Virus record (IMG/VR): IMGVR_UViG_2802429253_000004
Source of the DNA: a virus
Taxonomy: Duplodnaviria; Heunggongvirae; Uroviricota; Caudoviricetes
Direction: 5' to 3' (one strand)
Length of the DNA: 48,941 nt
Under the pieces are notes generated by a model, which saw only the letters and a list, made by a program, of their open reading frames with translations, searched no databases and was not told the DNA's origin. The position numbers and the translations under genes were made by a program. Below, in pieces: positions 1 through 48,941 of this stretch. Numbering within the stretch: position 1 is the stretch's first letter; each line of letters starts with the position of its first letter.

Positions 1-121
1 AAACCGAGGTTTTTGCGAATTGCCTCTGTATCGTCTGAACGATATTTTTTCCCGCTTTTAGCAACAATCGCGGTTTAGAAAGTATGCAATATGGTTATGC
101 GAGAGTGTCAACTTTTGACCA
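1..121. repeat. 121-bp terminal direct repeat, identical to 48821..48941 (overlap of a circular molecule)
   Basis: The first 121 nt match the last 121 nt of the window exactly. Confidence 0.9.
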
Positions 122-638
122 GAATTTAGAATTACAACTGGAGGCGCTCAGGCGTTCAGGATGTGACCGGATTTTTGAAGATAAAATATCCGGTGCTAAA
201 TCAAAACGACCTGGACTTGATAAGCTACTGAAGGTGTTACGGCCGGGCGATACGGTTATTGTCTGGAAGCTGGACCGAATGGGGCGTTCTCTGATTCATC
301 TTGTTGATTTACTTAACCATTTTTTATCAAACGACATTGAGTTTATTTCGATTACGGAAGGGATAAAAATTAGCACTTCAATTGGCCGCTTTGCCTACAC
401 GATGCTGAGTGCAGTCGCAGAGATGGAGCGGGAAAATATGATTGAAAGAACGCGTGCAGGATTGGCGGTGGCAAGGGCTAACGGCAGGATAGGAGGACGC
501 CGCTCAAAACTGGCACCAGAGCAATGGGAACAGATCGGAAGGCTTATTGCGAATGGTGTTTCACGTAAGCGGATAGCGATTATCTTCGATGTTACCTTAT
601 CCACGCTTTACCGCAGGTTTCCGGCTGGGAATCATTGA
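84..638 (+). CDS. Serine recombinase, DNA invertase of the Gin/Cin/Hin/Pin family
   Basis: 184 aa; N-terminal YARVSTxDQ catalytic motif, resolvase fold and C-terminal HTH, closely resembling Mu Gin; lies next to an invertible tail-fiber segment. Confidence 0.9.
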   Translation: MQYGYARVSTFDQNLELQLEALRRSGCDRIFEDKISGAKSKRPGLDKLLKVLRPGDTVIVWKLDRMGRSLIHLVDLLNHFLSNDIEFISITEGIKISTSIGRFAYTMLSAVAEMERENMIERTRAGLAVARANGRIGGRRSKLAPEQWEQIGRLIANGVSRKRIAIIFDVTLSTLYRRFPAGNH

Positions 639-768
639 CTGGAGTTAGGCCAGTAGTATGATGCTCGCAAAACGAGATCCAATTTAGATCCTTTTACTGG
701 TGGATTATCGTTCGATTAGTGAGAGACTTCGTGCATGACCGAAAGTGTTGTGGTAGAGTTCTCTTAAA

Positions 769-783
769 ACCACGTAACGTGGT
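769..783. promoter_or_regulatory. Operator-like palindrome ACCACGTAACGTGGT upstream of repA, same ACCAC-N5-GTGGT architecture as the cI/cro operators
   Basis: Perfect inverted half-sites ACCAC/GTGGT with 5-bp spacer; same pattern at 10711..10725, 11463..11477 and 11565..11579. Confidence 0.5.
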
Positions 784-821
784 TACGATTGTGGGTGTCT
801 GGTTGGAAAACGACCAGATAT

Positions 822-915
822 GGAAACAAAAAGCCCGCAGATAAATCTGCGGGCTTCTTGCGACATCCACGGAAAAACCAACAAACATATCCATGGGCGC
901 CTCGACAACTCCCAT
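822..915 (-). ncRNA. Candidate CopA-like antisense RNA of the repA leader (3' end defined by an intrinsic terminator on the minus strand)
   Basis: Minus-strand hairpin (about 832..856, stem AAGCCCGCAG/CTGCGGGCTT) followed by a U-run (about 821..830), just upstream of the repA start as in IncFII control regions; the 5' end is not defined. Confidence 0.35.
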
Positions 916-951
916 TATACGTTGGTTTTCCGTGGACGCAAGAGCGAACAT

Positions 952-1800
952 ATGGATAGACCAATGCCGTCTCTACGTTCAGCTTACGTTTGTAATTTGT
1001 CGCCGGAGTTCCAGCCTCCAAAGCACCATACGCACAAGCTGCCGCTGGTGTTATCTGATGCTTTACAGCGCATTAATGGTCGTGATCTTACGTGTGAGGT
1101 TGCGTTCTACGTTAATCAACCGTCAGAGCGGAAACGCCGGATAAACGAGCATCGTCGTCGGGCAATTAATGCTGTGATTGCTGCGATTTTGCACCATGTA
1201 AACATCATTTCTAAGCGGGTTCTGGCCAGTGCTGAGGCGTTGGCTGATTTTTGCGGCCTGTCTACCGTATCCGAAGCTGGGAACAAGTCTATAACGCGCT
1301 GTACAAGGGCGTTGTCGCAACTGAAAGAGTTAGGTTTTATTGATTATGAACGTCGCTGGGATCGGGTGAATAAACAGTATTGGCCAGCGAAAATCGAGAT
1401 TCGTGATCAACTGCTGGAAACAGTTGGTATTACTGAACAAGCATGGAGACGTGCGGTTAGCCAGAAACTTAATTACTTCAATGCGAAGAATAGCGAACGG
1501 CTTAAAAAAGCGATAACGGAGGCTGATTATAAGCGTATTGTTATTCAGGAGCAGATGGAGAATGTATGGCGTCAGAGGAAGACGGCCAGAGAGATAAAGG
1601 CAAAACAGAAAGCAGCGGAGAGAGCTGCGCGTCTTGTTCAGGAAAAGGGAGAGGCCGAACTTCGTCACCAAATCACTAGAGAGGTTAGCCAGGAATTTGC
1701 TGATGGCATGTATCCTGGTGCTGACCTTGCATATTTACGCTCCCTCGTTGATCAGCGTTATAACAGGCTAAGAAAGACCTGGACATCACTCCAACATTAA
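952..1800 (+). CDS. repA: Plasmid replication initiator RepA, IncFII (RepFIIA) RepA1-like
   Basis: Recognisable similarity to R100/R1 RepA1 (region LSTVSEAGNKSITRCTRALSQLKELGFIDYE); the ORF is open from 820 but the Met at 952 gives the RepA1-like length (283 aa) and clears the antisense hairpin; start is uncertain. Confidence 0.8.
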   Translation: MDRPMPSLRSAYVCNLSPEFQPPKHHTHKLPLVLSDALQRINGRDLTCEVAFYVNQPSERKRRINEHRRRAINAVIAAILHHVNIISKRVLASAEALADFCGLSTVSEAGNKSITRCTRALSQLKELGFIDYERRWDRVNKQYWPAKIEIRDQLLETVGITEQAWRRAVSQKLNYFNAKNSERLKKAITEADYKRIVIQEQMENVWRQRKTAREIKAKQKAAERAARLVQEKGEAELRHQITREVSQEFADGMYPGADLAYLRSLVDQRYNRLRKTWTSLQH

Positions 1801-1835
1801 CCCACCTGAATGATGAATCCGGTTTTACCGGAGGA

Positions 1836-2050
1836 TTATCCACGTCGCAATAAAATAGCTGTTCAAAAAACAAGCTAAATTAATTTTCTCTAAACCTGAA
1901 CACAGCGAAAATATCGTCTTTACAGGCATCAGCTAATCAAGTTATTCACAGTTTTGATATGTATATGCAAATGGTTTTTTATAATAGATGCACTAAACAA
2001 ATAAATGCAAAATCACTTTCTTTTATTAAAACTTTCTTTATTTAACTTAC
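1836..2050. other. Candidate replication origin (oriR-like): DnaA-box-like TTATCCACG at 1836..1844 followed by an AT-rich tract
   Basis: Lies directly downstream of repA as in IncFII replicons; 8/9 match to the DnaA box consensus; AT-rich stretch at about 1920..2040. Confidence 0.4.
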
Positions 2051-2443
2051 GCAGGCTTTGCCTGTGAATATGTTCGCCCTTGCAGCGAGCTAAAGCTCGC
2101 GCCGGTTCGAGTCGCTACGCTCAAATATACCTCCTCCGGCACTTGCCGGAGGCATGGAGCAGCCTGATCATCCTTTTCGAAACGGCGCGTTTCGAACTAT
2201 ACAAAATCAATTTATATAAGGCCGAAATAAGGCCTACGGCCGGGCTTTGCAGGAGGAAGGGGCGAGCCTTATCAATAAACGTCGATAAATACGCACACAG
2301 TAGCCATCAGAACGCGATAAAACGTAAGAAACATCATTTCCTATTAGACATAGAAAACTTGTCTTATACGCAATGTAGTAAATTTCTATTGCCACATAGG
2401 AAAAGATTTCCTACCATCGTAGATATAATAAATGGAGATGGTT

Positions 2444-2731
2444 ATGGATAAAGATACTGTTTTAAAAATGTTGAATCCGGCTTGTTTAAAAAAAGCGGAT
2501 GAATGGGAATCTCCTACATGTGGAGAAGTTCGGGCAGTCATTGGCCTGACCGGAATGAGCGGCTCGCAGTTGGCCAAAAAACTAGGCTTAAAAGATAGTC
2601 GCAATGTTCGCAACTGGCAGATGTTAAAGGAGTCCACATCCAGATCCAGCATTCCGTATGCAGCCTGGGCGCTGCTGTGTTACTTCGCTGGGTTAGGGTT
2701 AATCTTCATTGATAACAAAACAGATGTTTGA
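2444..2731 (+). CDS. Small HTH DNA-binding protein, function unknown
   Basis: HTH-like segment LTGMSGSQLAKKLGL; GGAG ribosome-binding site 6 nt before the ATG at 2444. Confidence 0.5.
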   Translation: MDKDTVLKMLNPACLKKADEWESPTCGEVRAVIGLTGMSGSQLAKKLGLKDSRNVRNWQMLKESTSRSSIPYAAWALLCYFAGLGLIFIDNKTDV

Positions 2732-2754
2732 AACATGCAAATATGAGGTTTGTT

Positions 2755-3018
2755 ATGGAACTTGTACGCAAAACACGCAAAGAGTTCTTGGACCTGTATC
2801 GCATGGGAGCTTTCACTTGTGTTGTGGCTACCCAGGACGAAGTGACAAAAAGCTGGCGGCTTTTTGCTCTCAATAAAAAAGGGATTGCCGTTTTCATTGA
2901 AAAAGCCCGTGGTGGTATCCGCGAATGGGCGGGATTGAATTATGTGGCTGATTTTTGCGCAGCTATGGGGATTCGTCGCTGGGAAGTCCATATGCCAGGA
3001 GTAAAGTCACAAAAATAG
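2755..3018 (+). CDS. Hypothetical protein
   Basis: ORF directly downstream of the HTH gene; GAGG ribosome-binding site before the ATG at 2755; no recognisable motif. Confidence 0.4.
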   Translation: MELVRKTRKEFLDLYRMGAFTCVVATQDEVTKSWRLFALNKKGIAVFIEKARGGIREWAGLNYVADFCAAMGIRRWEVHMPGVKSQK

Positions 3019-3262
3019 GGCTTTCGCGTCGAAAATGAGGCGAAACTGAAAACGAGATTTCATTAACAAATAAGCAACATAAAAAACGGTGGAAAACGCC
3101 CAGGAAAACATGATCTTTTGAGCGGATTTTTTAGATCCGACAATGAACGGTGATCCGGTGGTGCCGATAACGTCCATTATGTTAAATAGCCCCGTTTTTC
3201 TTGAAATTATAACTCACAGGTTATATAGTTAGTGATATAAACTACAGGTTATAGGATTGAGC

Positions 3263-3610
3263 ATGTGGACGGTACTTTTTAGCCAGCGATTTGACGACTG
3301 GCTAAATGAGCAAGAAGACGCTCTTCAGGAAAAGGTTTTGGCTGATTTGAAAAAGCTACAGGTTTACGGACCTGAGTTACCCAGGCCATATGCCGATACC
3401 GTAAAAGGTTCTCGGTACAAAAATATGAAAGAGCTTCGCGTTCAGTTTTCTGGCCGTCCGATAAGAGCCTTTTATGCGTTCGATCCGATTCGCCGGGCCA
3501 TCGTTCTTTGTGCAGGAGACAAAAGTAACGATAAGCGGTTTTATGAAAAACTGGTGCGTATAGCTGAGGATGAGTTTGCAGCACATCTGAACACACTGGA
3601 GAGCAAGTAA
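3263..3610 (+). CDS. higB: Type II toxin, RelE/ParE superfamily, HigB-like (Gp49-like killer protein)
   Basis: About 115 aa; toxin-first order with an overlapping downstream HTH antitoxin (stop and start share 3608..3612). Confidence 0.65.
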   Translation: MWTVLFSQRFDDWLNEQEDALQEKVLADLKKLQVYGPELPRPYADTVKGSRYKNMKELRVQFSGRPIRAFYAFDPIRRAIVLCAGDKSNDKRFYEKLVRIAEDEFAAHLNTLESK

Positions 3611-3909
3611 TGAGAACATTAGATGAGGCGATTGCCAGCCGTTCACCGGAAAGCCAGGCGCGAATTAAAGAAATGGCAGATGAGATGATTCTTGAGGTCG
3701 GCTTGCAGATGATGCGTGAAGAACTCCAGTTATCACAAAAACAGGTTGCTGAGGCGATGGGTATAAGCCAGCCAGCAGTAACAAAGCTGGAGCAGCGCGG
3801 AAATGATTTAAAGCTGGCGACATTAAAGCGTTACGTTGAAGCTATGGGAGGCAAATTAAGCCTGGATGTTGAGCTTCCCACAGGAAAACGAATAGCGTTT
3901 AACATCTGA
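3610..3909 (+). CDS. higA: Type II antitoxin, XRE-family HTH, HigA-like
   Basis: 99 aa; HTH motif LSQKQVAEAMGISQPAVTKLE; translationally coupled to the upstream toxin. Confidence 0.65.
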   Translation: MRTLDEAIASRSPESQARIKEMADEMILEVGLQMMREELQLSQKQVAEAMGISQPAVTKLEQRGNDLKLATLKRYVEAMGGKLSLDVELPTGKRIAFNI

Positions 3910-4865: not shown

Positions 4866-5424
4866 TCTGAAATTTAAATCTTGCTTGGTCGGCTGGATTT
4901 AAAAAGACACCTCTTGATTGGGGCGGCTTTCTTGCGTCTAAAGATAATCAAATCTTTTTGCGCCTGCAACCCCTTTTTTACTGGTGCCCATTTCAGACTC
5001 ACGCTCGCGTCGTTGTCTTTGCCACTTCGTTGGGTTCGGTGTTTTTGGGCGAAGTGGTGCGCGGGTATGCGTACAAGGGGAAAGTGTGCTGACGCAAGCC
5101 AGGAACAGCGATCTAAACTAAGTCGAGTCTGAGAAAGGCAGGAGTGCGACAACTCGCCTGTGCTCTATGAGCAGAAGAAGGTATATCAGACGACCAATGG
5201 CATGATTGTGGGCCACAGGGCGCACACGGCGGCGAAGCATTGGAAACGATGTGGAGCTATCTGGTGGCATGAGTTCCGGTACTCGATCTCGAGCTTTTTT
5301 TGATGCTTTTGAGAAGGGGCCGGAACTCCGGTAAAGGGCACCCTGTATGGGGGGAGGGGGGGTTGTGTCTAAAGGAAGATCTAATACGATATTGCTTTAC
5401 CCTTATATCTAAAAGGAGATTTCT

Positions 5425-6060
5425 ATGGGGATGCTGGTGGCGTTTATTATTAGCCTGATTTTGTGTTTCTTCGTAGTTCGTGGCGCATATCGGAAACAAT
5501 GTGCCTCGTCTTCTGGTAGTAAGTTCAAGGTTGTTTTAGTGAGTGGCTTTCTCGGGATTGCTACTTTTGTAGTTGTTAATACTTTTGCGGCTGTGACCTT
5601 GATCCCCGAAGACTCCAGCGCTACGGCTACTACCGGAGCTGCTTTTGATGGTGTGACCGTAGATAAGTTTAAGCAGTTATATAATGATGACCTTGAAGGC
5701 ATCGCTACATCAGGAAAAGCCACCTCCACTATAAGAATTAAGTCTGTTAAACAAGGTAACAACACCGTTGAATTTGCCATCAACTCATCTGTTAACGGTC
5801 GAGCTAGAGTTGATAAGGATGGGAAGATTTCAGAGTTATTATGGCGAGTATCTAAGCCTAGCTCTGATTCCTTGCTTTCTATGGCCGTAGCTGTTGAAGT
5901 CTTGGATGCATCAAGTGATAGAGACACAGTGATCGCGCAGTTAGAGCAGATTGTTAAATCTGATACGCAGAAAGCTGAGTTTAAGACTAAGAGAGGCGAG
6001 TATTACGTTTCTCGTGACAAATCAGGGCACGTGTCGCTATTGATTACACCGAAATATTAA
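5425..6060 (+). CDS. Membrane protein with two N-terminal transmembrane helices, function unknown
   Basis: 211 aa; hydrophobic segments LVAFIISLILCFFVV and VVLVSGFLGIATFVVV; AAGGAG ribosome-binding site; stand-alone gene bounded by terminators. Confidence 0.6.
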   Translation: MGMLVAFIISLILCFFVVRGAYRKQCASSSGSKFKVVLVSGFLGIATFVVVNTFAAVTLIPEDSSATATTGAAFDGVTVDKFKQLYNDDLEGIATSGKATSTIRIKSVKQGNNTVEFAINSSVNGRARVDKDGKISELLWRVSKPSSDSLLSMAVAVEVLDASSDRDTVIAQLEQIVKSDTQKAEFKTKRGEYYVSRDKSGHVSLLITPKY

Positions 6061-6070
6061 GAATTGAAGA

Positions 6071-6096
6071 AGCGCCCAAATCGGGCGCTTTGTTTT
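6071..6096. terminator. Bidirectional intrinsic terminator between convergent genes
   Basis: Stem AGCGCCC/GGGCGCT with a T-rich tail on the plus strand and a U-rich tail on the minus strand. Confidence 0.65.
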
Positions 6097-7237
6097 ATGG
6101 TTTTGCACCTGCGGCCAGTTTATCCGCAGATATTTTTATCAGTTCCTGTAGTGTCCTGGCTGGCAGGTTTGCATCCAGAACGCTGAGTATGCTGTTGTGA
6201 TCAGCCTGGTCGACTACTTTGCCTGTCGGTGGTAGTAGCTTGAGCTGAGGATTCAGGTTTTCGTCAAAGCTGATAAGTGCTCTGGCGTTTCTGAGCAGAT
6301 CAAGAAGTAAGGCTGATATCACATCATCTTTAGTCATTGTTGGTAGATTTAGTGCCGCTTTAGTTTTCTCCGTCGCCTTGTCAAACTCTTTGATTAGTGT
6401 CTTGCGGTAGTTTGGTTCTGTTAATAGCCGATGATGTTCTGTTGCCGTTCGGATAATCTTTGTTTCCTGATACAGTCGGTTGTATAGCATTCGCTCGTAT
6501 TCTGCCTTTAACACGCTGCTGATAGCGTTAAAGGCTTCAATGTAGGCCAGCTTGATATCCTTCACGCCTGGACCGTCGATACTTTCCATGAGCAAGGTAA
6601 ATCCGTCTTTTGTCATGCGATAGATTGTTATTTCGCGGTCGCTTCCTTCCAGCGGTCGTTGCTCTTTAAAGAAATGACGCGCCGCAGCCGTGCGAGGAAT
6701 GCGTAATGCATCGATGGCCATTACGATGGAATTGTTTGTGGTGCTGAATGCTTGGGCAACATCGGCTGAGGTTGTGAGTGGCTCGTTGTTGCACACCTTA
6801 ATGTAATACATCGGTTTGGCATTGAGTGTATCGACAACCTCACGAGCATTGTTTGGCGAGACGGTTACGGTCGCGGCCGTTTGCGCGTTCTGGTTGAAGT
6901 AGCAGTCTTCCAGCCGTTCGAATACATCCCACGCCTGATCGGTTTCGAGCATTTTAGCGTGACGTGCAGCCCCGCGTTCGGTCCAGAGGATGAGTTTTCT
7001 AACGTTATTCGCGATGGTTTGAAAATCTCTTAAAGAGATTTTCAAACTTTGGAGATCTGTACCTTTTACAACTATGAAATGTTTTCCTTCTGTAAACCGG
7101 GACTTATTACGGTGGTGATTTCTGTGAAGACATTCGACGCTACAGCCATATAGTTTGGCAAGCAGCTCCGTGGTGATAACGGGGAGCTGGTTATGCAGGA
7201 TAGGCTGTAGGGTGTTAACGGTCGGAAGCGTTTTCAT
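6095..7237 (-). CDS. Antirepressor-like regulator with ORF6N-type N-terminal domain and Rha domain
   Basis: 380 aa; N-terminal segment ending LWTERGAARHAKMLETDQAWDVFERL, central Rha-like segment ITIYRMTKDGFTLLMESIDGPGVKDIKLAYIEAFNAI. Confidence 0.7.
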   Translation of the reverse strand: MKTLPTVNTLQPILHNQLPVITTELLAKLYGCSVECLHRNHHRNKSRFTEGKHFIVVKGTDLQSLKISLRDFQTIANNVRKLILWTERGAARHAKMLETDQAWDVFERLEDCYFNQNAQTAATVTVSPNNAREVVDTLNAKPMYYIKVCNNEPLTTSADVAQAFSTTNNSIVMAIDALRIPRTAAARHFFKEQRPLEGSDREITIYRMTKDGFTLLMESIDGPGVKDIKLAYIEAFNAISSVLKAEYERMLYNRLYQETKIIRTATEHHRLLTEPNYRKTLIKEFDKATEKTKAALNLPTMTKDDVISALLLDLLRNARALISFDENLNPQLKLLPPTGKVVDQADHNSILSVLDANLPARTLQELIKISADKLAAGAKP

Positions 7238-7425
7238 TTTGCACCTCCCATAACTACTTTGGTTACGAGGGAGATTTTTGCGTCAGAAACAGCGTTATCG
7301 TTGCTGGCGATGCGCATAGCTTCGCGCTCGATGATTTCAGCCAGGCGGAATTTATCGGCGTATGAGGCTTTCTTGAGAAGGATCTTTACGAGGTTGACGT
7401 AATAGTCATGGGGTAGGTTTGTCAT
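7234..7425 (-). CDS. Small protein translationally coupled to the antirepressor gene (positionally Icd-like)
   Basis: 63 aa; its stop overlaps the ant start (ATGA); ribosome-binding site AAGGGA on the minus strand. Confidence 0.45.
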   Translation of the reverse strand: MTNLPHDYYVNLVKILLKKASYADKFRLAEIIEREAMRIASNDNAVSDAKISLVTKVVMGGAK

Positions 7426-7587
7426 TGTGATGATTCCCTTAAAGGTTAAGGATACTCACCACCGTCAGGTTCCAATCATTGGGTGGTGAGACGTGCAGGG
7501 TTGGAACTACCGGACACAATGACGAACCGGCGAGTCTTACGACTCCCCCGCACGCCCCACCATAATTTGGGTGTAGCAGTGCTTTAC

Positions 7588-7612
7588 GCATAAAAAAACC
7601 GCTAACGCGGTA
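7588..7612 (-). terminator. Intrinsic terminator on the minus strand within the leader of the antirepressor operon (3' end of a candidate small RNA or attenuator)
   Basis: Minus-strand hairpin ACCGCG..GCGGT followed by TTTTTTT; mutually exclusive pairing segments upstream (TCTACGG / CCGTAGA / CTACGG at 7626..7663). Confidence 0.4.
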
Positions 7613-7875
7613 TGCGCCATTGTGTCTACGGGGTTCCAATCCCGACCGTAGATTTTGCTACGGCTCGGAAAGTGTCCACCAATGGCGCATTCATGTCAAT
7701 ACGGCGGGATTTTAACAGAGGCAACCACATAGCGTGGGTTTGAATGCAGGGCTTTTAATTTTCTTGATATGCTAAGAACGGGAATGTATAGTTCCTGTAA
7801 GGAACAAATCAGTCCTAAATTGTGATGTTTTGTTAAAGTTGGGAACAAGAAAAAAATTTATTATGGGGATAAAAA

Positions 7876-8415
7876 ATGATTGAACCGTCAAAAAACTCAT
7901 GTTTTTCAACCATTCACCTAATGATCATAAAAGAACTTAGGCTAGAAAGAGGTGTGCATCAAGGGATGCTAGCTCAAGCTGCTGGTAAAACACCGAACGC
8001 ATGGACAAAGATAGAGAACGGGCAGTCTGTATTAACAGTTGACGCACTTTTTGGTGCTTTCACAGCCCTTAATATTACTCCAGTGAATTTCATGTCATTG
8101 GTAGAAAATCTTATTTCCGAATTTAACCGTTATGGTTACCACTTCCATCCAGGAACCATTCCTCTGGAAGAAGATAGTCTTTTGCCTCTGATGCTGCGTT
8201 ACTTTAATAGCAAGGGGTTTGAAGCATTGAGAAATAGGCCATTCGAAAGAATTAGCATAAGCTCAATGGGGTTCTCATTTGGGGGGGGCATCCCTGTTAC
8301 TCCAACTGCTGTAATGTATTGTTGCGATGAAGCATATAGAAATTGGGTCGATAACGGCGCTGATATGGATAATCGAGATTATCTGAAGCCATTAACAGGT
8401 CTTGGACGGTTTTAA
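7876..8415 (+). CDS. XRE-type HTH protein with an uncharacterised C-terminal domain
   Basis: 179 aa; HTH near residues 20-60 (GMLAQAAGKTPNAWTKIENGQS); transcribed divergently from the antirepressor operon. Confidence 0.55.
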   Translation: MIEPSKNSCFSTIHLMIIKELRLERGVHQGMLAQAAGKTPNAWTKIENGQSVLTVDALFGAFTALNITPVNFMSLVENLISEFNRYGYHFHPGTIPLEEDSLLPLMLRYFNSKGFEALRNRPFERISISSMGFSFGGGIPVTPTAVMYCCDEAYRNWVDNGADMDNRDYLKPLTGLGRF

Positions 8416-8954: not shown

Positions 8955-8959
8955 CGATT

Positions 8960-9453: not shown

Positions 9454-9465
9454 GTGTATCCCCTC

Positions 9466-40432: not shown

Positions 40433-40643
40433 TTATAGAACGGTTCAAGGGGACTCATGGGATAGTATCGCGTTAAAGTTGTATGGTAATGAGTACCTGT
40501 CTTATCTTCTTATTGATGCTAATACTGAGCACCGCTTTACGGTGCTTTTTTCTGCGGGAATTATTCTTAAAGTTCCTGATGCTCCGGTTATGCCAATATC
40601 AGTAAACAATTTGCCTCCGTGGAGACGCAATAGTGTTACGTAA
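40425..40643 (+). CDS. LysM-like tail protein X
   Basis: 72 aa; resembles P2 gpX (YRTVQGDSWDSIALKLYG). Confidence 0.6.
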   Translation: MDDYRTVQGDSWDSIALKLYGNEYLSYLLIDANTEHRFTVLFSAGIILKVPDAPVMPISVNNLPPWRRNSVT

Positions 40644-41634
40644 AACGCTTTTTGATGTTATATATCAGAATGTAAATATTACCGCTCATATGTCACCTGA
40701 TGTTTTGTCAATGTCTTATACAGATAATGAAGATGGTCAGGTCGATGATATTTCTATTATATTAAAAAATGATGATGGGAAATGGTCTGGAGACTGGACA
40801 CCTAAAAAGGGTGATTTTATTGATTTGAGCTTTAAGCCTATAAATCAAATCGTCCTTGAGTGCGGGAAATTCCAGGTAGATGGCATAACTTGCTCTGGAC
40901 CACCTTCTGTTGTTGAGGTGACTGCTGTTTCTGTTCCTGTTTCATCAGGCATTAGACGTGATTTAAAAAGTAATGCATGGGAAAAAACAACTCTTAAAGA
41001 TATAGCAACCTCTATAGCTAAATTAGCTAACCTTGAACTGTTGTTTCTTATTGATGGTGATAGTAATCCATATTATGCGCGTGAAGATCAAATGGAGGAA
41101 AGCGATTTAAAATTTCTCCATCGACTATGCCAGGATGAAGGGTTGTCGTTAAAGGTCACTGATAGCCAATTAATAATATTTGCTCAAGAGATGTTTGAGC
41201 AAAAAGATCCTATCGCTACGCTTACGTTAGGTATTGATGAGATAATCAGATATAGCTTTAGCACACAATCTACAGATTTGTATAAAAGTTGCACGTGCAA
41301 ATATCGCGTACCTAAAAAAAGAAAGTCGCTTTCGTATACTTGGGTAGATCCATCCGTAGAAGAAGGGTCGAATCTTAAGATAAGAAAACTGGTAGCTAAT
41401 TTAGATGAAGCAAAACGTAAGGCAAAGGCTGCTTTGCGGCTTAAAAATAGATATCAAAATACAGGATCTTTAGTATTGGTTGGAGACACCAGATTGGTAG
41501 CTGGTGTAACTATAAATCTGGACGGATTCGGTTCATTTTCTGGAAAATATCTTATATCGAAAGCTGTGCATTCAATTGGGGCTAGTGGTTATACCACCTC
41601 GATTGATGTCCGAAGAGTAATTAATGGGTATTAA
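40633..41634 (+). CDS. Tail protein D/baseplate hub-like (late control D family)
   Basis: 333 aa downstream of the tape measure and X. Confidence 0.6.
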   Translation: MLRKTLFDVIYQNVNITAHMSPDVLSMSYTDNEDGQVDDISIILKNDDGKWSGDWTPKKGDFIDLSFKPINQIVLECGKFQVDGITCSGPPSVVEVTAVSVPVSSGIRRDLKSNAWEKTTLKDIATSIAKLANLELLFLIDGDSNPYYAREDQMEESDLKFLHRLCQDEGLSLKVTDSQLIIFAQEMFEQKDPIATLTLGIDEIIRYSFSTQSTDLYKSCTCKYRVPKKRKSLSYTWVDPSVEEGSNLKIRKLVANLDEAKRKAKAALRLKNRYQNTGSLVLVGDTRLVAGVTINLDGFGSFSGKYLISKAVHSIGASGYTTSIDVRRVINGY

Positions 41635-41636
41635 TT

Positions 41637-42257
41637 ATGAATGATTTAGAAACATTATTACGTCAGACTATAAGAGTTGGCGTTGTTTCTGATATTGATG
41701 ATGGTGATGTTACAGCAAGAGTTACTTTCGATGATCAGGATAACGTCACTTCGGCAAAGTTATCAGTTATTGTGAAAAATACGGATAAGAATGCTGATTA
41801 CTGGATGCCAGATATTGGTGAGCAAGTTTTGTGTATCTTTCATCCCGCAGGGCCGCAACAAGGTTTTATTATTGGTAGTTTTTATGATGAAACACAGAAG
41901 CCGCCATCTAATACTGTTAATAAACGCGTCATTAGATTTAATAACGGAACTCGTATTGAGGTAGACAGAGAATCTAATTTACTCCTTGTTGATGCTGTCG
42001 GAGATGTAACCGTTAAGGCTACAGGAACCGTAACTATTGATGCTCCAGAAACCATCATTACCGGAAATGCTACAGTTGAAGGATTACTAACCTTCAAAGG
42101 TGGAATGAAAGGATCTTCTGCTGGAGGTGTTGCAGCTACAATTTCTGGGGATGTTAAGGTTGTTGGTGGTGATATAGATGTTGATGGGATTAAATCTAAA
42201 GGCCACCATCACACGGCTCAGGGGGAATACGCTCCGACAACGGAGGCTCAGGCATGA
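41637..42257 (+). CDS. Baseplate spike/assembly protein V-like
   Basis: 206 aa; resembles P2 gpV (EQVLCIFHPAG..), Gly-rich beta-helical C-terminus. Confidence 0.7.
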   Translation: MNDLETLLRQTIRVGVVSDIDDGDVTARVTFDDQDNVTSAKLSVIVKNTDKNADYWMPDIGEQVLCIFHPAGPQQGFIIGSFYDETQKPPSNTVNKRVIRFNNGTRIEVDRESNLLLVDAVGDVTVKATGTVTIDAPETIITGNATVEGLLTFKGGMKGSSAGGVAATISGDVKVVGGDIDVDGIKSKGHHHTAQGEYAPTTEAQA

Positions 42258-42721
42258 TTGTGGGTATGCTTGGTACAATGCCTTTTGTTGCCTCATCAAT
42301 AGTGGTGAATACGTTCAACAATTTTAAAAGGACGTCAAAGCGTCGTGTAGCGCGCCATGATGTTATTGGGCTTAAACCTGTTCTGGAGGATATAGGTCCA
42401 GATCTGGATGAAGTTAGTTTTAATATGCGGTTGGATACAACACTTGGCATTGTTCCATTGGCTGCGCTTTCATTACTTAGGACAATGCAATCAATTCAGG
42501 AAGTAAATCCTGTTGTAATTGGTATTCAGTATTTTGGTAATTTTATAATTACAGATATAGAGGAATCATGGACTTATTTCGGTCCAACTGGGAATCCACG
42601 AGTGATTATCGTCGGCATTAAATTACAGGAAGTCGGACAGACCTCTCTGAAAGAAGCATTAGTTGATATTGCTGGCAATATAGAGTCAAAAACTAGAAGT
42701 GCGTTAGGTAAATTATTATGA
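42254..42721 (+). CDS. Baseplate protein (function unassigned)
   Basis: 155 aa between the V-like and W-like genes. Confidence 0.5.
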   Translation: MIVGMLGTMPFVASSIVVNTFNNFKRTSKRRVARHDVIGLKPVLEDIGPDLDEVSFNMRLDTTLGIVPLAALSLLRTMQSIQEVNPVVIGIQYFGNFIITDIEESWTYFGPTGNPRVIIVGIKLQEVGQTSLKEALVDIAGNIESKTRSALGKLL

Positions 42722-43038
42722 ATAATACGTTTACCATATCATCACCTTCTTACTCGATTGATTGGTCGCCCAAAACAGTTGTAGAAGAAGTTTTGCAAAA
42801 TGTCTCTACTATTATTAATACTCAGATTGGCACTGTACCATATGCCAGAAAATTAGGAGTTAATTCAAGTCTTGTTGATAGCCCTAGCCCAATTTTTATT
42901 GCTACAGCAACACGAGAAATAATTCAAAAAATTAGTGAGTTTGAGCCTAGAGCGATTATCCATTCTGTTACTTTTGAAAGAACGGACGTTTCTGATGGTT
43001 TTATTAGGCCAAAACTTGTGATAGGAGTTAGAGAATGA
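42718..43038 (+). CDS. Baseplate wedge protein, gpW/gp25-like
   Basis: 106 aa immediately upstream of the J-like gene. Confidence 0.6.
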   Translation: MNNTFTISSPSYSIDWSPKTVVEEVLQNVSTIINTQIGTVPYARKLGVNSSLVDSPSPIFIATATREIIQKISEFEPRAIIHSVTFERTDVSDGFIRPKLVIGVRE

Positions 43039-44159
43039 CGTTGCCGCGCGGTGGTTTGCCAGATATTACTTTCGCAGATTCTAACCCGACTGATATAACA
43101 ACTCGTTCAATCAGGGCTTTTGAGAGTATAACAGGTGAAACATTAGCACCTGCTGATCCACGTAGATTATTCATCTTGTCATTGTGTGAGATTATTATAC
43201 AGCAAAGAAAAGCTATCGATTTTTCTGCAAAACAAAACCTTCTTACATATGGTGGGGGTGAATATCTCGACCATATAGGCTATCTGACGGATACGCCTAG
43301 GCTGGAAGCTCAATCTGCCTTGACTACATTTGAGTTTAATCTGTCAACAAAATTATCGGGGATATATACAATACCTGCTGGCACTCAAATTTCAACTGGA
43401 AATAGTGTTATTTTCCAAACAGATGTTTTGTTGGAAATACCAGCTGGGAAAACAGTTGGTACAGCCTCAGGATATGCTGTTATACCTGGCTTATCGGGGA
43501 ATGGATTTTTACCTGGGCAAATAAACGAGTTGGTGACTCCGTTGCCGTATGTTTCCAGCGTAAGGAATCTAACAACATCTAATTCTGGTGCTGATACAGA
43601 GTCAGATGATAATTATGCTGAAAGAATAAAACTGTCGCCGGAAAAACTGTCTACAGCAGGGCCGGAGGATTCTTATAAATATTGGACAAGAACAGCCAAT
43701 CAGAATATAAAAGATGTGAATGTATATACACCATCGCCCGGAACTGTAGAAATCCGTTCTTTGTTAGAGAACGGGGATATACCTTCTGATGAACTATTAG
43801 AGCAGATAAATAGCGTTCTCTCTGCAACTAATATTCGACCATTCACAGATAAAGTTCTTGTTAAGAAACCAGAGAGCATTGAATACGATATAATAATTAA
43901 ATACTGGATTAACTCATCGGACAAAAACAGAACAACTTTAATTCAAAGTGAGGTTGAGAAAGCTATTGATGAGTATAAACAATGGCAACGTTCGGTTATG
44001 GGAAGAGATATAAATCCAGATGAAATTATTCAACGTTTAAAAAATGCTGGGGCTAAAAGATTAGAAATATCAAGTCCTGTATTTACTGTGGTTGGAGAGA
44101 CGCAGGTCGCCAGAGAGAGAAATATAAATTGCCAGTATGCGGGGTTAGAGGATGGCTGA
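43035..44159 (+). CDS. Baseplate protein J-like
   Basis: 374 aa; standard W-J-I order. Confidence 0.7.
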   Translation: MTLPRGGLPDITFADSNPTDITTRSIRAFESITGETLAPADPRRLFILSLCEIIIQQRKAIDFSAKQNLLTYGGGEYLDHIGYLTDTPRLEAQSALTTFEFNLSTKLSGIYTIPAGTQISTGNSVIFQTDVLLEIPAGKTVGTASGYAVIPGLSGNGFLPGQINELVTPLPYVSSVRNLTTSNSGADTESDDNYAERIKLSPEKLSTAGPEDSYKYWTRTANQNIKDVNVYTPSPGTVEIRSLLENGDIPSDELLEQINSVLSATNIRPFTDKVLVKKPESIEYDIIIKYWINSSDKNRTTLIQSEVEKAIDEYKQWQRSVMGRDINPDEIIQRLKNAGAKRLEISSPVFTVVGETQVARERNINCQYAGLEDG

Positions 44160-44733
44160 TATCTTTAATGTTAGCTTGTTGGATGTTTTACCTCCTAACT
44201 TAGCTAGAGATCCCAACGTGATAGCTATGTCGAAAGCTATCGATGATGAACTACAAGCAATTAACAATTTAATATATAAGACAGAAATATATAGCGTTGT
44301 TGATAACCTGGACTCAGTTGTTCTCGATCATTTAGCTTGGCAATGGAATGCTGATACATGGAGGGATAGTTGGCCTGTATCGTTAAAGCGTTCTGTTTTT
44401 AAATCAATAATACGAACAAAGCGAATAAAGGGTACAAGGGCAGCGGTTGAAGATGTAGTAAATAGCTTGGGTGGAGAGGTAAACATAACAGAATGGTTTG
44501 AAACATCACCACCTGGCGAACCATATACAGCCTCAATTGTTGCTTCGATTAACTCTTTTGATGGTGCCGTTCCTTCGAAAGAGATGTTGGAAGATACGTT
44601 AAGAAGTATCAAGAGCGCAAAGTCGGCAAGAACATTATTTACATTTTCGCAAGCAGCCAATGTTTCTGGTGGTGTCGGTATTGTTGGTGCTTGTCAGCCT
44701 GTGTCTTATGTACGATTAATTGGCGAGTGCTAA
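44152..44733 (+). CDS. Tail protein I-like
   Basis: 193 aa between J and the tail fiber. Confidence 0.6.
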   Translation: MADIFNVSLLDVLPPNLARDPNVIAMSKAIDDELQAINNLIYKTEIYSVVDNLDSVVLDHLAWQWNADTWRDSWPVSLKRSVFKSIIRTKRIKGTRAAVEDVVNSLGGEVNITEWFETSPPGEPYTASIVASINSFDGAVPSKEMLEDTLRSIKSAKSARTLFTFSQAANVSGGVGIVGACQPVSYVRLIGEC

Positions 44734-44763: not shown

Positions 44764-46833
44764 GTGAGTAAATTATTATTTACGATGACTGACGCCGGGC
44801 GTCAGGAGCTGGTTAATGCCAACAAAACAGGAACAAATAAAGTTGAGATTGTTTCTGTTGGTTTAGGTAGTAGATATTATGTCACGTCAACTTCACAAAC
44901 AAATATAACAAACGAAATAAAACGACTTACCACAATAGGTGGCAAAGTTGTTTCCCCTGATACAATTCATGTAACAGCGAAGGATGATAGTAAAGATGAG
45001 TATGTTGTCCATACAATAGGATTGTATACGAATAAGGGTACGTTGTTTGCTGTATACTCACAAGAACAAGCAATAATAAATAAAGCATCATCTACTATCG
45101 CTTTAATATCAAGTGATATAGCAATTAAAACTCTTGATACTAAAAATATTACATTTGGTGATATTGAGTTTATTAATCCTCCCGCGACCGAAACTGTTGT
45201 TGGGGTGGCAAGATTTGCTAATGAACAAGAAATTGATGCAGGTACAGATGATTCCCTTGCTGTTTCAGCAAAGCGGCTTAAGCAAGCCATTGTGAAACAT
45301 GAGCAATCACGTAATCATCCTGATGCAACTTTAACCTCAAAAGGCTTTGTTCAACTTAGCAGCGCCACCAATAGCACGTCTGAAACGCTTGCTGCGACGC
45401 CTAAGGCTGTTAAGGCAGCATATGACCTGGCTAACGCCAAATACACCGCACAGGACGCTACCACAGCGCGAAAAGGGATTGTTCAGCTCAGTAGTGCCAC
45501 CAACAGCACGTCTGAAACGCTGGCAGCAACACCAAAGGCTGTTAAGGCAGCGTATGATCTTGCGGCCGGAAAGGCTCCGTCCAATCACACGCATTCGTGG
45601 GAGCAGATAACAAATGTGCCTGTAGCTTCACTGACTGTAAGGGGAATAACTCAGCTCAGTAGTGCCACCAACAGCACGTCTGAAACACTGGCCGCGACAT
45701 CGAAAGCTGTAAAGGTGGTAATGGATGAAACGAACAAGAAAGCGCCCCTGAACAGTCCGGCGCTGACCGGAACACCAACAACACCAACTGCGCCAAAAGG
45801 TACTAACAATACTCAGATCGCAAGCACGGCTTATGTTATGGCTGCGATCGCTGCCCTCGTGGACTCATCGCCTGACGCACTGAATACGCTGAACGAGCTG
45901 GCTGCGGCGTTGGGCAACGACCCGAATTTTGCGACCACCATGACTAACGCGCTTGCGGGTAAGCAACCGAAAGATGCCACCCTGACGGCGCTGGCCGGGC
46001 TTGCTACTGCGGCAGACAGGTTTCCGTATTTTACGGGGAATGATGTCGCCAGCCTGGCAACTCTGACAAAAGTCGGGCGGGATATTCTTGCGAAATCGAC
46101 CGTTGCCGCCGTTATCGAATACCTCGGTTTACGAGAACTCGGCACAAGCGGGGAAAAAATACCGTTACTCAGTACGGCGAATACCTGGACCAATCGACAA
46201 ACATTCAGTGGTGGCCTTTCTGGGGAACTGTCCGGCAATGCCGCTACTGCAACAAAGCTGAAAACAGCACGAAAAATTGCTGGAGTTGGTTTTGATGGTT
46301 CTAGCGATATTTCAATTAGTGCCAAAAATGTCAATGCATTTGCACTCCGACAAACAGGTAATACTGTTAATGGTGATACATCCGTTGGATGGAATTGGGA
46401 TAGTGGTGCATATAACGCCCTAATTGGTGGTGCATCTGCATTAATTCTTCACTTTAATATAAATGCTGGTAGCTGTCCTGCCGTACAATTCCGTGTGAAT
46501 TATAAAAATGGTGGCATTTCCTACAGGTCGGCTCGTGATGGTTATGGGTTTGAATTAGGTTGGTCAGATTTCTATACCACGACACGAAAACCTTCAGCGG
46601 GAGATGTTGGTGCATATACTCAGGCAGAATGTAACTCAAGGTTTATTACAGGTATTCGCCTTGGCGGTCTGTCATCTGTTCAGACATGGAATGGTCCCGG
46701 CTGGTCTGACAGGTCAGGTTACGTTGTTACGGGTTCAGTTAACGGAAACCGTGATGAATTAATTGATACAACACAGGCAAGGCCAATTCAGTATTGCATT
46801 AATGGGACGTGGTATAACGCGGGGAGTATTTAA
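44764..46833 (+). CDS. Tail fiber protein (constant N-terminal part plus variable C-terminal part, current orientation)
   Basis: 689 aa; internal fiber repeats; a gix-like crossover site lies in-frame at 46112..46137; C-terminus ends ..YCINGTWYNAGSI. Confidence 0.85.
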   Translation: MSKLLFTMTDAGRQELVNANKTGTNKVEIVSVGLGSRYYVTSTSQTNITNEIKRLTTIGGKVVSPDTIHVTAKDDSKDEYVVHTIGLYTNKGTLFAVYSQEQAIINKASSTIALISSDIAIKTLDTKNITFGDIEFINPPATETVVGVARFANEQEIDAGTDDSLAVSAKRLKQAIVKHEQSRNHPDATLTSKGFVQLSSATNSTSETLAATPKAVKAAYDLANAKYTAQDATTARKGIVQLSSATNSTSETLAATPKAVKAAYDLAAGKAPSNHTHSWEQITNVPVASLTVRGITQLSSATNSTSETLAATSKAVKVVMDETNKKAPLNSPALTGTPTTPTAPKGTNNTQIASTAYVMAAIAALVDSSPDALNTLNELAAALGNDPNFATTMTNALAGKQPKDATLTALAGLATAADRFPYFTGNDVASLATLTKVGRDILAKSTVAAVIEYLGLRELGTSGEKIPLLSTANTWTNRQTFSGGLSGELSGNAATATKLKTARKIAGVGFDGSSDISISAKNVNAFALRQTGNTVNGDTSVGWNWDSGAYNALIGGASALILHFNINAGSCPAVQFRVNYKNGGISYRSARDGYGFELGWSDFYTTTRKPSAGDVGAYTQAECNSRFITGIRLGGLSSVQTWNGPGWSDRSGYVVTGSVNGNRDELIDTTQARPIQYCINGTWYNAGSI
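46112..46137. promoter_or_regulatory. gix/cix-like recombination site inside the tail fiber gene (TTATCGAATACCTCGGTTTACGAGAA)
   Basis: Matches the Mu gix consensus TTATCCAAAACCTCGGTTTACAGGAA at most positions; inverted partner at 48807..48833. Confidence 0.75.
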
Positions 46834-46835
46834 CG

Positions 46836-47369
46836 ATGATGCACTTAAAAAACATTACTGCTGGCAACCCTAAAACAAAAGAGCAATACCAGCTAACGAA
46901 ACAATTTAACATCAAATGGCTTTATACAGAGGATGGAAAAAACTGGTATGAGGAACAAAATAACTTTCAGCCTGATACGTTGAAAATGGTCTATGACCAC
47001 AACGGCGTTATTATTTGTATTGAAAAGGATGTTTCAGCAATTAATCCAGAAGGCGCAAGCGTCGTTGAATTACCTGATATTACAGCAAATCGCCGGGCTG
47101 ATATTTCGGGTAAATGGATGTTCAAAGATGGCGTAGTGATAAAGCGAACTTACACCGAGGAAGAGCAGAGGCAACAAGCGGAAAATGAAAAGCAAAGCCT
47201 GTTGCAACTTGTCAGGGATAAAACCCAGCTATGGGACTCACAGCTACGGCTGGGCATCATTTCCGACGAGAATAAACAAAAATTAACCGAGTGGATGCTC
47301 TACGCGCAGAAAGTCGAATCCACAGACACCTCCAGCCTGCCAGTAACGTTTCCCGAACAACCAGAATGA
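46836..47369 (+). CDS. Tail fiber assembly protein (Tfa/U)
   Basis: 177 aa; Tfa-type N-terminal domain directly after the fiber gene. Confidence 0.8.
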   Translation: MMHLKNITAGNPKTKEQYQLTKQFNIKWLYTEDGKNWYEEQNNFQPDTLKMVYDHNGVIICIEKDVSAINPEGASVVELPDITANRRADISGKWMFKDGVVIKRTYTEEEQRQQAENEKQSLLQLVRDKTQLWDSQLRLGIISDENKQKLTEWMLYAQKVESTDTSSLPVTFPEQPE

Positions 47370-47397
47370 GAGAAGGCCCGCTATCGGGCCTTAATTT

Positions 47398-47925
47398 TTA
47401 CTCTGGTTTTTGTGGCCATTCTGGCTTTGCCGTATCCACGCGGCTGACCAGAACGCTGTAGCGTTCCCATGACTCCAGTCGTGTACGCTCCTCATCTGTT
47501 GCCATATTCAATCTGACAGCGCGTTCCAGTGGCTGGATAACTGATTCAGCTTCGGAAAGTAACGCGGACTTTTGTGATTCAGCCTGTTGTTGCTGTTCGT
47601 CTTCCGTATAAATCCGTTTAACCACAGCTCCATCCTTAAACATCCACTTCCTTGAATCATCGGCACGACGATTAGCTGTTATATCGGGAACCTCAACGAC
47701 GCTAAAACCTTCAGGATTAAGCGTGGAGGCATCTTTAGTGATGGCGACAATAATATTATTTTCGTCGTAAACAATCTTTATTGTGTCTTCCTGAAAATTA
47801 CTTACTTCCTCATACCAGTTTTTATCATCTTCGGACCATAACCATATAACATCAAAATTCTTTGTTAGCTGATATTGTTCTTTTGTTTTTGGATTTCCTG
47901 ATCTGATATTTTTTAAATGCTGCAT
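47398..47925 (-). CDS. Alternative tail fiber assembly protein (Tfa/U')
   Basis: 175 aa; paralog of 46836..47369 on the opposite strand inside the invertible segment. Confidence 0.8.
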
Positions 47926-47928
47926 AAT

Positions 47929-48816
47929 TTATACCTGTGCAACGTTATACCATGTACCATTGATGTATTTCTGAATTGGTCTGAAAATAGCTTCATCATC
48001 GCCATCAACTTCACCAATAATTCTTAATCCGGTAAGTGCGTGTCCGGCAATCTCATAACGCCCGCCGCGTGACATTAATTGAACAACTCGCGTACCAAGC
48101 CGGACATCTCCCACATAGCGAGAGTCAAAATTGCTGTAATTGGATGGGATAACCTGTCCGTGCACATTCAGACCGTGCCCCATAGTAACAAGACCAGTAT
48201 TAAGCGCGATATAGAATGGACGAAGACCATTCCAGCTACCGTACTGGTCACCACTGGCAGTAAATAACAGATACAAGCTGCCACCATCCTGTCGCAGAAT
48301 TGCACCATAATTTCCTGCAATCATCCTTAAAGCATTCTGTGATGTGGTTATCAGTTCCCCAGTCATGGTATCGCCAGCACGATTCCAGTCGCGACGCCAG
48401 CCAGGCGCGTAGGTGTCACCATGATTAATATAAGTAAATTGCGCTTTTGCTGTACCGTTCGTTGCAGTTGTTGGAGTAGTGACGCGAATAGTCATTGCGC
48501 TCTTGGTGCCCATCACTTCAACCACCGAGCCAGCAAGTTGAATATTCCCGCAACCTGTATCTGTAATAATTTTATTATTGGCATAAGACCATGAACCTTT
48601 GCACATCCAGTATGGGTGATTAAATGCCCCCTGAGACTCCAGCCACGCAATAAACTGTGCTGTCGTCCAGTTGCTGCTATCTCCTCCAATATTGATACTT
48701 CCGCTGGCCGCTTTCGCTGCACCAATATTTTTTGTGAAGGTATCTTTTCCTGGAATATCCGCACCGTTCTGGTTTTTCTGCAATGCGCCAGAAGCCTTGT
48801 TTATCGTTTCCTGCAA
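47929..48816 (-). CDS. Alternative tail-fiber variable C-terminal segment (Sv'), expressed only after inversion
   Basis: Open frame begins exactly at the gix core; an LGL-QETINK junction continues the fiber frame after inversion; C-terminus ..YINGTWYNVAQV parallels the plus-strand fiber. Confidence 0.8.
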   Translation of the reverse strand: MQETINKASGALQKNQNGADIPGKDTFTKNIGAAKAASGSINIGGDSSNWTTAQFIAWLESQGAFNHPYWMCKGSWSYANNKIITDTGCGNIQLAGSVVEVMGTKSAMTIRVTTPTTATNGTAKAQFTYINHGDTYAPGWRRDWNRAGDTMTGELITTSQNALRMIAGNYGAILRQDGGSLYLLFTASGDQYGSWNGLRPFYIALNTGLVTMGHGLNVHGQVIPSNYSNFDSRYVGDVRLGTRVVQLMSRGGRYEIAGHALTGLRIIGEVDGDDEAIFRPIQKYINGTWYNVAQV

Positions 48817-48833
48817 ACCGAGGTTTTTGCGAA
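48807..48833. promoter_or_regulatory. gix/cix-like recombination site (inverted partner of 46112..46137)
   Basis: Reverse complement TTCGCAAAAACCTCGGTTTGCAGGAAA shares the ACCTCGGTTT core and dyad arms with the site in the fiber gene. Confidence 0.75.
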
Positions 48834-48941
48834 TTGCCTCTGTATCGTCTGAACGATATTTTTTCCCGCTTTTAGCAACAATCGCGGTTTAGAAAGTATG
48901 CAATATGGTTATGCGAGAGTGTCAACTTTTGACCAGAATTT

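Follow-up and report, generated by a model that had tools for sequence, protein, structure and literature searches.

A 48.8-kb circular temperate myovirus of an already sequenced lineage, very probably carried as a low-copy plasmid

How is a temperate phage kept in its host when its genome encodes no integrase? The question is raised by the IMG/VR virus record IMGVR_UViG_2802429253_000004, a stretch of 48,941 bp with 44.4% GC (the window in what follows), in which genes for plasmid maintenance stand beside those of a tailed phage. An earlier, sequence-only reading described the whole as a circular phage-plasmid. The analysis reported here agrees in the main: the element is very probably a phage-plasmid, a complete temperate myovirus that persists as prophage in the form of a circular plasmid of low copy number, and it belongs to a lineage that has already been sequenced. 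The virion, packaging and lysis genes are complete and are accompanied by RepA, ParA and a HigBA-like pair, so that both the full temperate-phage gene set and the plasmid maintenance genes of the first description are present. Its proposal that the lysogenic state is probably an extrachromosomal plasmid is likewise favoured by the lack of an integrase, by relatives that are found on plasmids and by relatives that were isolated as phages. Database records hold near-identical plasmids from cultured strains and ~97% identical phages isolated on Yersinia pestis EV76. The 73 open reading frames (ORFs) of the window were scanned against Pfam and 43 of these against PHROGs; NCBIfam profiles were used as well.

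The first 127 bases of the window are exactly those of its end (48815–48941), a terminal repeat that closes a unit circle of 48,814 bp. The overlap had been put at 121 bp, a figure now corrected to 127. The repeat consists of unique sequence, a gix half-site and the 5' end of the invertase gene, and is present at the two window ends only. An assembly artefact of a linear fragment might produce such an overlap: de Bruijn assemblers often have 127 as their largest k, and a path may be closed falsely by a short repeat. Against this stand the uniqueness of the repeat and its confinement to the two ends, a total length that fits the family, and the independent closed relatives of 47–50 kb that share the adjacency. 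Local BLAST against four closed relatives showed NZ_CP009073, NZ_CP023368 and OR545055 to be collinear over the window junction. Because closed relatives continue through the junction, the circle is real and not the product of a chance repeat, and an artefact is scarcely credible. The closed circle of ~48.8 kb first proposed therefore stands on the exact overlap and on this collinearity.

The position at which the contig was opened is also informative. When the inverted form of the tail-fibre segment was built in silico, the two orientations proved to share sequence from 48815 onwards at the right junction, and the contig start and the 127-nt terminal repeat begin precisely at this first shared base. 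The simplest reading, which concerns the behaviour of the assembler, is that the assembly graph branched at 48815; this fits a vertex of a k = 127 de Bruijn graph. A branch at this point suggests that both orientations of the fibre segment were present in the sample.

The segment is the presumed target of the only recombinase in the window. This is a small serine DNA invertase of the Gin/Cin/Pin/Hin type (184 amino acids, plus strand, 84–638; Pfam Resolvase 2.6e-43 and HTH_7), as the first reading had it, and the gene is 90% identical in nucleotide sequence to pin of phage SJ46. The 73 ORFs yielded neither a tyrosine integrase nor a large serine recombinase nor a transposase. The tail-fibre region (44764–48833; Phage_fiber_2, Caudo_TAP twice, Gp34_trimer) holds an invertible segment of 2.7 kb, with the constant part of the fibre preceding its left site. 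The segment carries two alternative fibre tips, each with an assembly gene: Sv/U, extending to 47369 on the plus strand, and U'/Sv' on the minus strand (47398–48816). It is ~90% identical in nucleotide sequence to the invertible segments of P1, P7 and Mu/D108. The gix-like sites at its borders are inverted 26-bp sequences (left 46112–46137, right 48808–48833) with matching central dinucleotides, TC/GA. These came from an inverted-repeat search, the Mu gix consensus having no match in the window at three or fewer mismatches; they presumably resemble the gix consensus, from which 4–5 positions differ by hand count. One relative, NZ_CP020518, is without any recombinase, the invertase included.

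Relatives are numerous. Megablast returned many ~47–52 kb Escherichia records, filed as plasmids, at 96–99% identity over most of the window. Among its other matches were the Yersinia phages vB_YpM_39, 41 and 44 (OR545053-55; ~49 kb; host Y. pestis EV76-CN), which share ~97% identity with the greater part of the window, and two incomplete contigs of induced E. coli prophages. The best single relatives reach ~98% identity with 89–93% of the window covered. The difference from the closest relatives is an accessory mosaic (5376–6113, 7742–8687, 15909–17936, 21453–22445 and the fibre tips), each module of which is found in some other relative; the window is thus a new combination of modules. Among 5,426 complete E. 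coli genomes the head-and-tail module (26300–44700) occurs in 72, with 96 of its 97 places on ~47–52 kb plasmids, and the replicon region (640–3300) is on plasmids at all 126 of its places. The proposal that the element exists as a separate replicon in host assemblies is borne out by these counts. In PLSDB the repA region is present in 63 records, all typed non-mobilizable: 59 from Escherichia, one from Klebsiella aerogenes and three, at ~74% identity, from Salmonella. At blastn sensitivity the replicon is confined in that database to the present phage-plasmid lineage, and diverged sisters of the lineage occur in Salmonella. An IMG/VR search with RepA gave 10 loci, and none of the species-representative genomes yielded a relative of RepA.

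The same counts speak against a conventional integrative prophage that was sampled as a circle after excision or during replication, or whose concatemer the assembler collapsed. A terminal k-mer overlap alone cannot separate a plasmid from a circular replication intermediate, and a single copy of the head-and-tail module bears a chromosomal label. An integrative prophage is nevertheless highly improbable, given the absence of an integrase or transposase, the presence of RepA with an origin, a ParA operon, a toxin–antitoxin pair and a Xer site, and the plasmid location in closed genomes of the replicon and of all other copies of the module.

Some members of the lineage depart from the common form. 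L011 (IMGVR_UViG_3300029841_000009, 68.5 kb) and NZ_CP032086.1 (94.2 kb, from ATCC 25922) carry the same RepA or head-and-tail module and are far above one unit in length; multimerization, cointegrate formation or an assembly artefact could account for this. Among NZ_CP173475.1, NZ_JBRERL010000006.1 and NZ_CP023368.1 there are insertions of IS3-family insertion sequences (IS), one of which interrupts the terminase gene, or an antirepressor gene that is split; some of the lineage is therefore degenerating into plain plasmids. A literature search found no paper describing the lineage as a group, the 2018 survey of circular plasmid prophages by Gilcrease and Casjens, in which elements of this kind may be treated, lying outside that search. 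Searching by the accessions of relatives led to one genome announcement, which names a relative as a plasmid only.

The virion genes of the window are those of a myovirus. The packaging and head module (26351–33683, plus strand) encodes a ParB/Srx-like protein, a small terminase, a GpA large terminase, a DUF6148 protein, a lambda-family portal, a ClpP-like protease, a decoration protein and an E-type major capsid protein. Terminase, portal and capsid confirm the lambda-like head that had been proposed. The large terminase (TerL) is ~28% identical to TerL of Escherichia phages of ~46–48 kb, for example 1H12 and PhiR26_1; identities of at least 99% are found within the present lineage alone. The connector and contractile tail module follows (33684–44733, plus strand), with sheath, tube, chaperone, tape measure, X, GPD, V, GpU, W, J and I, called from Pfam, PHROGs and the PGAP names in relatives. 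The tail had been called Mu/P2-like. It is of P2 type, and likeness to Mu and P1 is limited to the invertible fibre cassette. The lysis cassette (18066–19605, plus strand), also recognized at the outset, is supported by Pfam and PHROG matches (Phage_holin_8, Phage_holin_3_7, Glyco_hydro_108, phrog_1026) and comprises two holins, a GH108 endolysin with a peptidoglycan-binding domain, and an Rz-like spanin. The ORFs for head, tail and lysis proteins are all full length, and their lengths equal those in relatives and in the isolated phages. A candidate cohesive end, GGTCATTCGAAC, lies in the intergenic region 5' of the terminase genes (25937–25948). The three Yersinia phage records start at window positions 25937, 25937 and 25949, and the 12-nt offset among them corresponds to GGTCATTCGAAC. 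The offset fits 12-nt cohesive ends made by a GpA-type terminase and is offered as a lead only.

Whether such a particle is still infectious is the point at which a different explanation enters, namely a cryptic plasmid with a defective prophage that yields no infectious particles. Most relatives are filed as 'plasmid' with no phage phenotype reported, in some an IS interrupts the gene for the terminase, or the antirepressor or fibre genes have become pseudogenes, and no late activator was recognized in the window. The full-length head, tail and lysis ORFs argue in the other direction, as do the three Y. pestis phages, which are ~97% identical and have the same gene order; that the contig opens at the branch point of the inversion hints at an invertase that is active. 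A defective prophage is unlikely on this evidence, and a functional phage-plasmid remains the preferred reading.

The plasmid side of the element centres on its replicon. The RepA initiator (282 amino acids, plus strand, 952–1800) matches PF02387 at 4e-43 and passes the NF040977 model RepA_IncFII_LM (233 bits, cut-off 70), in agreement with the repA gene first annotated. It fails the strict incFII equivalog TIGR03474 (81.7 bits, cut-off 446.9), and the label 'IncFII-type' is therefore valid at the superfamily level alone; in the strict sense the first reading's IncFII replicon is contradicted by this failure and by the lack of an Rfam CopA match. Translation of RepA probably starts at 952 and not, as in the ORF list, at 820. 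The start at 820 is not conserved, and 952 agrees with the Salmonella relative L006 and with one PGAP call. The gap from the invertase gene to the repA leader contains no ORF, and a CopB gene is absent. The usual place of CopB, 5' of the leader, is occupied by a putative operator palindrome (ACCACGTAACGTGGT, 769–783) that is shared with the phage operators described below.

A candidate antisense RNA of the repA leader is encoded on the minus strand (822–945), where a long bulged hairpin is followed by an intrinsic terminator. This strand folds at −65.7 kcal/mol (z = −8.4) and bears TTGCGT-16-TATAAT as a putative promoter. Relatives with flanks of only ~65–75% identity have kept the block almost unchanged. 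Three of its 42 predicted pairs are compensatory, changed on both sides yet still paired; as four sequences were compared, this supports a real hairpin structure and is not proof of one. A canonical CopA antisense RNA was rejected, since the region 500–2500 gave no Rfam match up to E = 5. The probable origin (1834–2060) lies just 3' of repA, where the DnaA box TTATCCACG (1834–1842) precedes an AT-rich stretch. The oriR of plasmid R1 is likewise just downstream of repA, and the origin is placed here because the DnaA box and AT-rich tract match that layout.

Stable inheritance would be served by a partition operon on the minus strand (9205–10725). It consists, in order of transcription, of an operator-like palindrome (10711–10725), orf124 (10301–10675), AT-rich iterons (10166–10278), ParA (222 amino acids, 9497–10165) and an 82-amino-acid partner (9205–9453). 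The iterons are repeats of TATAAATCTATA and occur both 5' of parA and between parA and the partner gene. ParA has CbiA/ParA/MipZ matches in Pfam and scores below the cut-off of NF041546. Of the pair of ParA and ribbon-helix-helix (RHH) protein proposed earlier, ParA is upheld by these matches, and the RHH label on the partner is not. A type II toxin–antitoxin pair, the HigBA-like pair of the first reading, lies at 3257–3909 on the plus strand; the HigB/RelE-like toxin of the Gp49 family matches PF05973 (1.1e-21), the antitoxin matches HTH_3 and HTH_37, and the PGAP names in relatives concur.

A ryfA-like RNA (8686–8982, plus strand; Rfam RF00126 123.9 bits, cut-off 80) encloses an ORF for a hydrophobic protein of 39 amino acids (8835–8954), for which the TimP model gives 20.8 bits, below its cut-off of 45. 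A partial copy of the 5' part of the RNA is present at 8512–8542. The RNA and the small ORF may constitute a type I toxin–antitoxin system and thus a second addiction module.

No att-like site had been seen on first inspection. The absence of an integrase is upheld, but a dif/cer-like XerCD core had been missed: GGTGCCGATAA-CGTCCA-TTATGTTAAAT, 28 bp on the plus strand at 3160–3187. A single mismatch occurs in 18 specified positions, the XerD arm is perfect and the central region, of 6 bp, is like that of dif; by the analysis's own estimate, ~2e-4 chance matches of this quality are expected in the window. L001, L004 and L006 all retain the core, L006 with a single change in its central region; in this Salmonella relative, 74% identical in the repA region, the core stands as a conserved island amid sequence of 65% identity. 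A Xer-dependent integrative element (IMEX-like), inserting at chromosomal dif besides its life as a plasmid, could be read from the same 28-bp core, with its perfect XerD arm and dif-like central region, and would accommodate the one unexplained chromosomal place of the head-and-tail module. Yet the replicon with its Xer region is on no E. coli chromosome in the 5,426 complete genomes. The Xer region also occurs on unrelated plasmids of 8–30 kb, as cer-type resolution sites do, and multimer resolution is therefore favoured over integration. Chromosomal insertion by this route is very unlikely; the core is probably a site at which host XerCD resolves multimers of the plasmid prophage.

Lysogeny appears to be governed by two immunity regions. 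The first includes a CI-type repressor (218 amino acids, minus strand, 10768–11424), identified as CI-like in the first reading and confirmed by HTH_3 (1e-11) at its N-terminus and by phrog_4 and phrog_6201 ('CI-like repressor'); its C-terminal domain is CI-like by PHROGs. Its gene is divergent from the early operon. By inspection, DELM stands where the GDSM motif is expected, and no solved S24 structure was matched by sequence. The repressor may be unable to cleave itself, which would leave the antirepressor as the route of induction. The first protein of the early operon (11599–12093) had been called Cro-like, a label that is withdrawn for want of any family match in Pfam or NCBIfam at permissive thresholds.

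The second region is an operon of P1 immI type on the minus strand (6095–7738). An operator-like site (7724–7738) is followed by an isrK/c4-a1b1 target region (7592–7677), a C4 antisense RNA (7479–7567), an ORF for 63 amino acids (7234–7425) and the antirepressor gene ant (6095–7237), which the small ORF overlaps. The Rfam scores are 77.8 bits for C4 (cut-off 45) and 67.7 bits for isrK (cut-off 50); c4-a1b1, which overlaps the isrK match, scores 38.8 bits and is below its cut-off of 46.7. ORF6N and Rha domains and anti-repressor PHROGs substantiate the antirepressor of the first reading. The immI operon of P1 has the same arrangement of C4 RNA, small ORF and antirepressor. LexA control at ant was considered and rejected: the window's sole CTGT-N8-ACAG lies inside a head gene and is at chance frequency. 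Between the antirepressor operon and a variable helix-turn-helix (HTH) gene (7876–8415) there is a perfect palindrome, GTTCC-TTACA-GGAAC (7789–7803), which may be an operator for the HTH protein.

A second palindrome is common to these regions and the plasmid genes. The motif ACCAC-N5-GTGGT has eight matches at one or no mismatch in the window, against 0.61 expected. The four perfect palindromes are all intergenic, and these and one near-perfect copy all lie in regulatory gaps. Two or three are in the interval that divides cI from the early operon, and there is one each 5' of orf124–parA, of the antirepressor operon and of the repA leader. The cluster between cI and the early operon (11462–11579; copies at 11462 and 11565 and an imperfect one at 11545) overlaps TTGAAA-17-TTTAAT and is conserved in L006. 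Comparison with L006 and with the IMG/VR loci L012 and L013 shows half-sites that are kept and spacers that differ, within intergenic DNA that is poorly conserved. The extended form AAACCAC-N5-GTGGTTT is probably the operator of the CI-type repressor. As the same palindrome accompanies the early promoter, repA and both the ant and the par operon, we infer that immunity, partition and replication may be under one shared regulator.

A stronger version of this idea holds that the phage repressor doubles as a regulator of copy number and partition, that loss of CI derepresses RepA, and that the plasmid origin is also the lytic origin. The last point is suggested because no separate phage replication initiator is recognizable. 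The proposal is tentative and, on present evidence, somewhat doubtful. If it were true, a fused regulon of this kind would characterize a common and undescribed phage-plasmid group, present in ~1.3% of complete E. coli genomes.

Several results weigh against the reading of the element as a complete phage-plasmid under such control. A single place of the head-and-tail module, out of 97, bears the label chromosome, and the element as a whole yielded no recognizable late-gene activator. In the replicon, the leader antisense element finds no counterpart in Rfam CopA over the range given above, and its promoter is weak by consensus, with a −35 hexamer matching at 3 of 6 positions, and was not reported by a promoter scan. 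The 82-amino-acid partner of ParA matches no Pfam or NCBIfam family, permissive thresholds included, so that an RHH fold, which a type Ib partition system would require, is unsupported. The repressor lacks a clear S24 catalytic motif (Peptidase_S24 18.4 bits, cut-off 23.3), no LexA box lies near the antirepressor operon, and the assignment of the putative operators to CI rests on the positions of the sites.

Taken together, the features suggest the following cycle. Virion DNA would be linear, with cohesive ends cut near 25937–25948 by the GpA-type terminase, and would circularise after injection. RepA is then predicted to start theta replication at the DnaA-box/AT-rich origin 3' of its gene, its supply being limited by the antisense RNA of the leader. 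Copies would be segregated by ParA and the 82-amino-acid protein acting through the AT-rich iterons, dimers would be resolved by host XerCD at the dif/cer-like site, and plasmid loss would be penalised by HigBA and possibly by a TimP-like type I toxin too. Lysogeny would be held by the CI-type repressor on AAACCAC-N5-GTGGTTT operators, the same regulator serving immunity and plasmid maintenance. The P1-like C4 antisense RNA would silence the antirepressor; its release would inactivate CI and open lytic growth. Inversion of the fibre segment by the Gin-type invertase would switch the host range.

The remaining genes are early and accessory ones. The early operon (11599–17934, plus strand) encodes proteins without assigned function, a Ref nuclease (12835–13239), DUF1064 and DUF3560 proteins and, at 15909–17936, a variable ea22-like accessory block. 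Its ORF at 13572–13949 had been labelled Q-like, and this too falls away, as no supporting family match was found in Pfam or NCBIfam at permissive thresholds. Over its full length the ORF weakly resembles the PA0613 family (21.5 bits, cut-off 100), a Pseudomonas pyocin-cluster gene. A tRNA with a CAT anticodon (19891–19966, plus strand) is called Met by ARAGORN and Ile (lysidine type) by PGAP in relatives. Further on are an MT-A70 methyltransferase (20275–20862) and, at 23061–25057, a ParB-N protein beside a ParB-N/methyltransferase fusion. PADLOC, run on ten accessory proteins, matched only orphan type II methyltransferases and no partner nuclease; these enzymes probably protect the element itself from host restriction. 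An ORF of 237 amino acids far from the tail genes (22113–22826) joins a Caudo_TAP/phrog_136-like N-terminus to a C-terminal part of unknown kind, and its equivalent in NZ_CP023368 has been annotated as a truncated pseudogene with a separate ORF.

As sequence the element is already known and offers nothing new: novelty is low because it is in public databases many times, as dozens of plasmids and three phages that are 96–99% identical. Its interest lies elsewhere. A frequent 'cryptic plasmid' of E. coli, present even in the reference strain ATCC 25922, would be an intact phage, and this identity bears on plasmid typing, on work on phage host range and on the interpretation of viromes. The regulatory layout leads to testable hypotheses on how a small phage-plasmid might couple immunity to plasmid maintenance. 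Its main features are the putative operators shared by repA, par, ant and the early promoter, the P1-type C4/antirepressor switch, and a host-Xer site in place of a resolvase of its own.

Several known systems share features with the element. P1 and P7 (Punavirus) share with it a circular plasmid prophage, a contractile tail, the C4/antirepressor operon, Ref and an invertible fibre segment of Cin/Gin type. The window element is half the size of P1, and the P1 traits Cre/lox, P1 RepA (RepA-IncY or p0111), ParAB, C1, RepL and headful pac were not found in the window with Pfam and PHROGs. It has a lambda-family head, a GpA terminase that is probably of cos type and an HTH_3 CI-type repressor, whereas P1 has headful packaging and C1. 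Megablast likeness to P1 is limited to the fibre segment and to small accessory genes.

N15 resembles the element in combining a lambdoid-type repressor with an antirepressor, and control of its repA by the phage repressor has been reported. In contrast, N15 is linear and a siphovirus, with a telomerase and a different RepA, none of which is present in the window element. The N15 antirepressor is described as controlled by a small processed RNA (reference list of PMC11652158). The curated phage-plasmid groups AB, N15, P1, pCAV, pKpn, pMT1, pSLy3, SSU5_pHCM2 and cp32 are of 55–111 kb and mostly siphoviruses, and a ~48-kb Escherichia myovirus is not among them (Table 1 of PMC11652158). The present lineage is outside these groups. 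Membership of the pSLy3 group was rejected, pSLy3 being an SSU5-like siphovirus of ~110 kb.

The individual modules have counterparts elsewhere. The IncFII plasmids R1 and R100 (copB–copA–tap–repA–oriR) share the RepA superfamily, a structured element on the antisense strand of the leader and an origin 3' of repA. They differ in that the window element fails the strict RepA model, has no Rfam CopA and no CopB gene, and carries a phage-operator-like palindrome instead. The head recalls lambda in its GpA terminase, Phage_portal_2 portal, ClpP/S49-type protease, decoration protein and E-type capsid. The tail recalls P2 in GpU, GPD, V, W, J and I; the Ogr, Cox and integrase genes of P2 are not in the window. 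The S/U cassette with its gix-like 26-bp sites recalls the G segment of Mu, and because there is no transposase the element is not Mu-like in replication. Closest of all are the ~47–52 kb Escherichia 'plasmids', such as those of ATCC 25922 (NZ_CP009073) and strain 1428 (p48, NZ_CP023368), and the Yersinia phages. These also lack an integrase, are 96–99% identical in nucleotide sequence over ~89–93% of the window, and have the same gene order, replicon and size.

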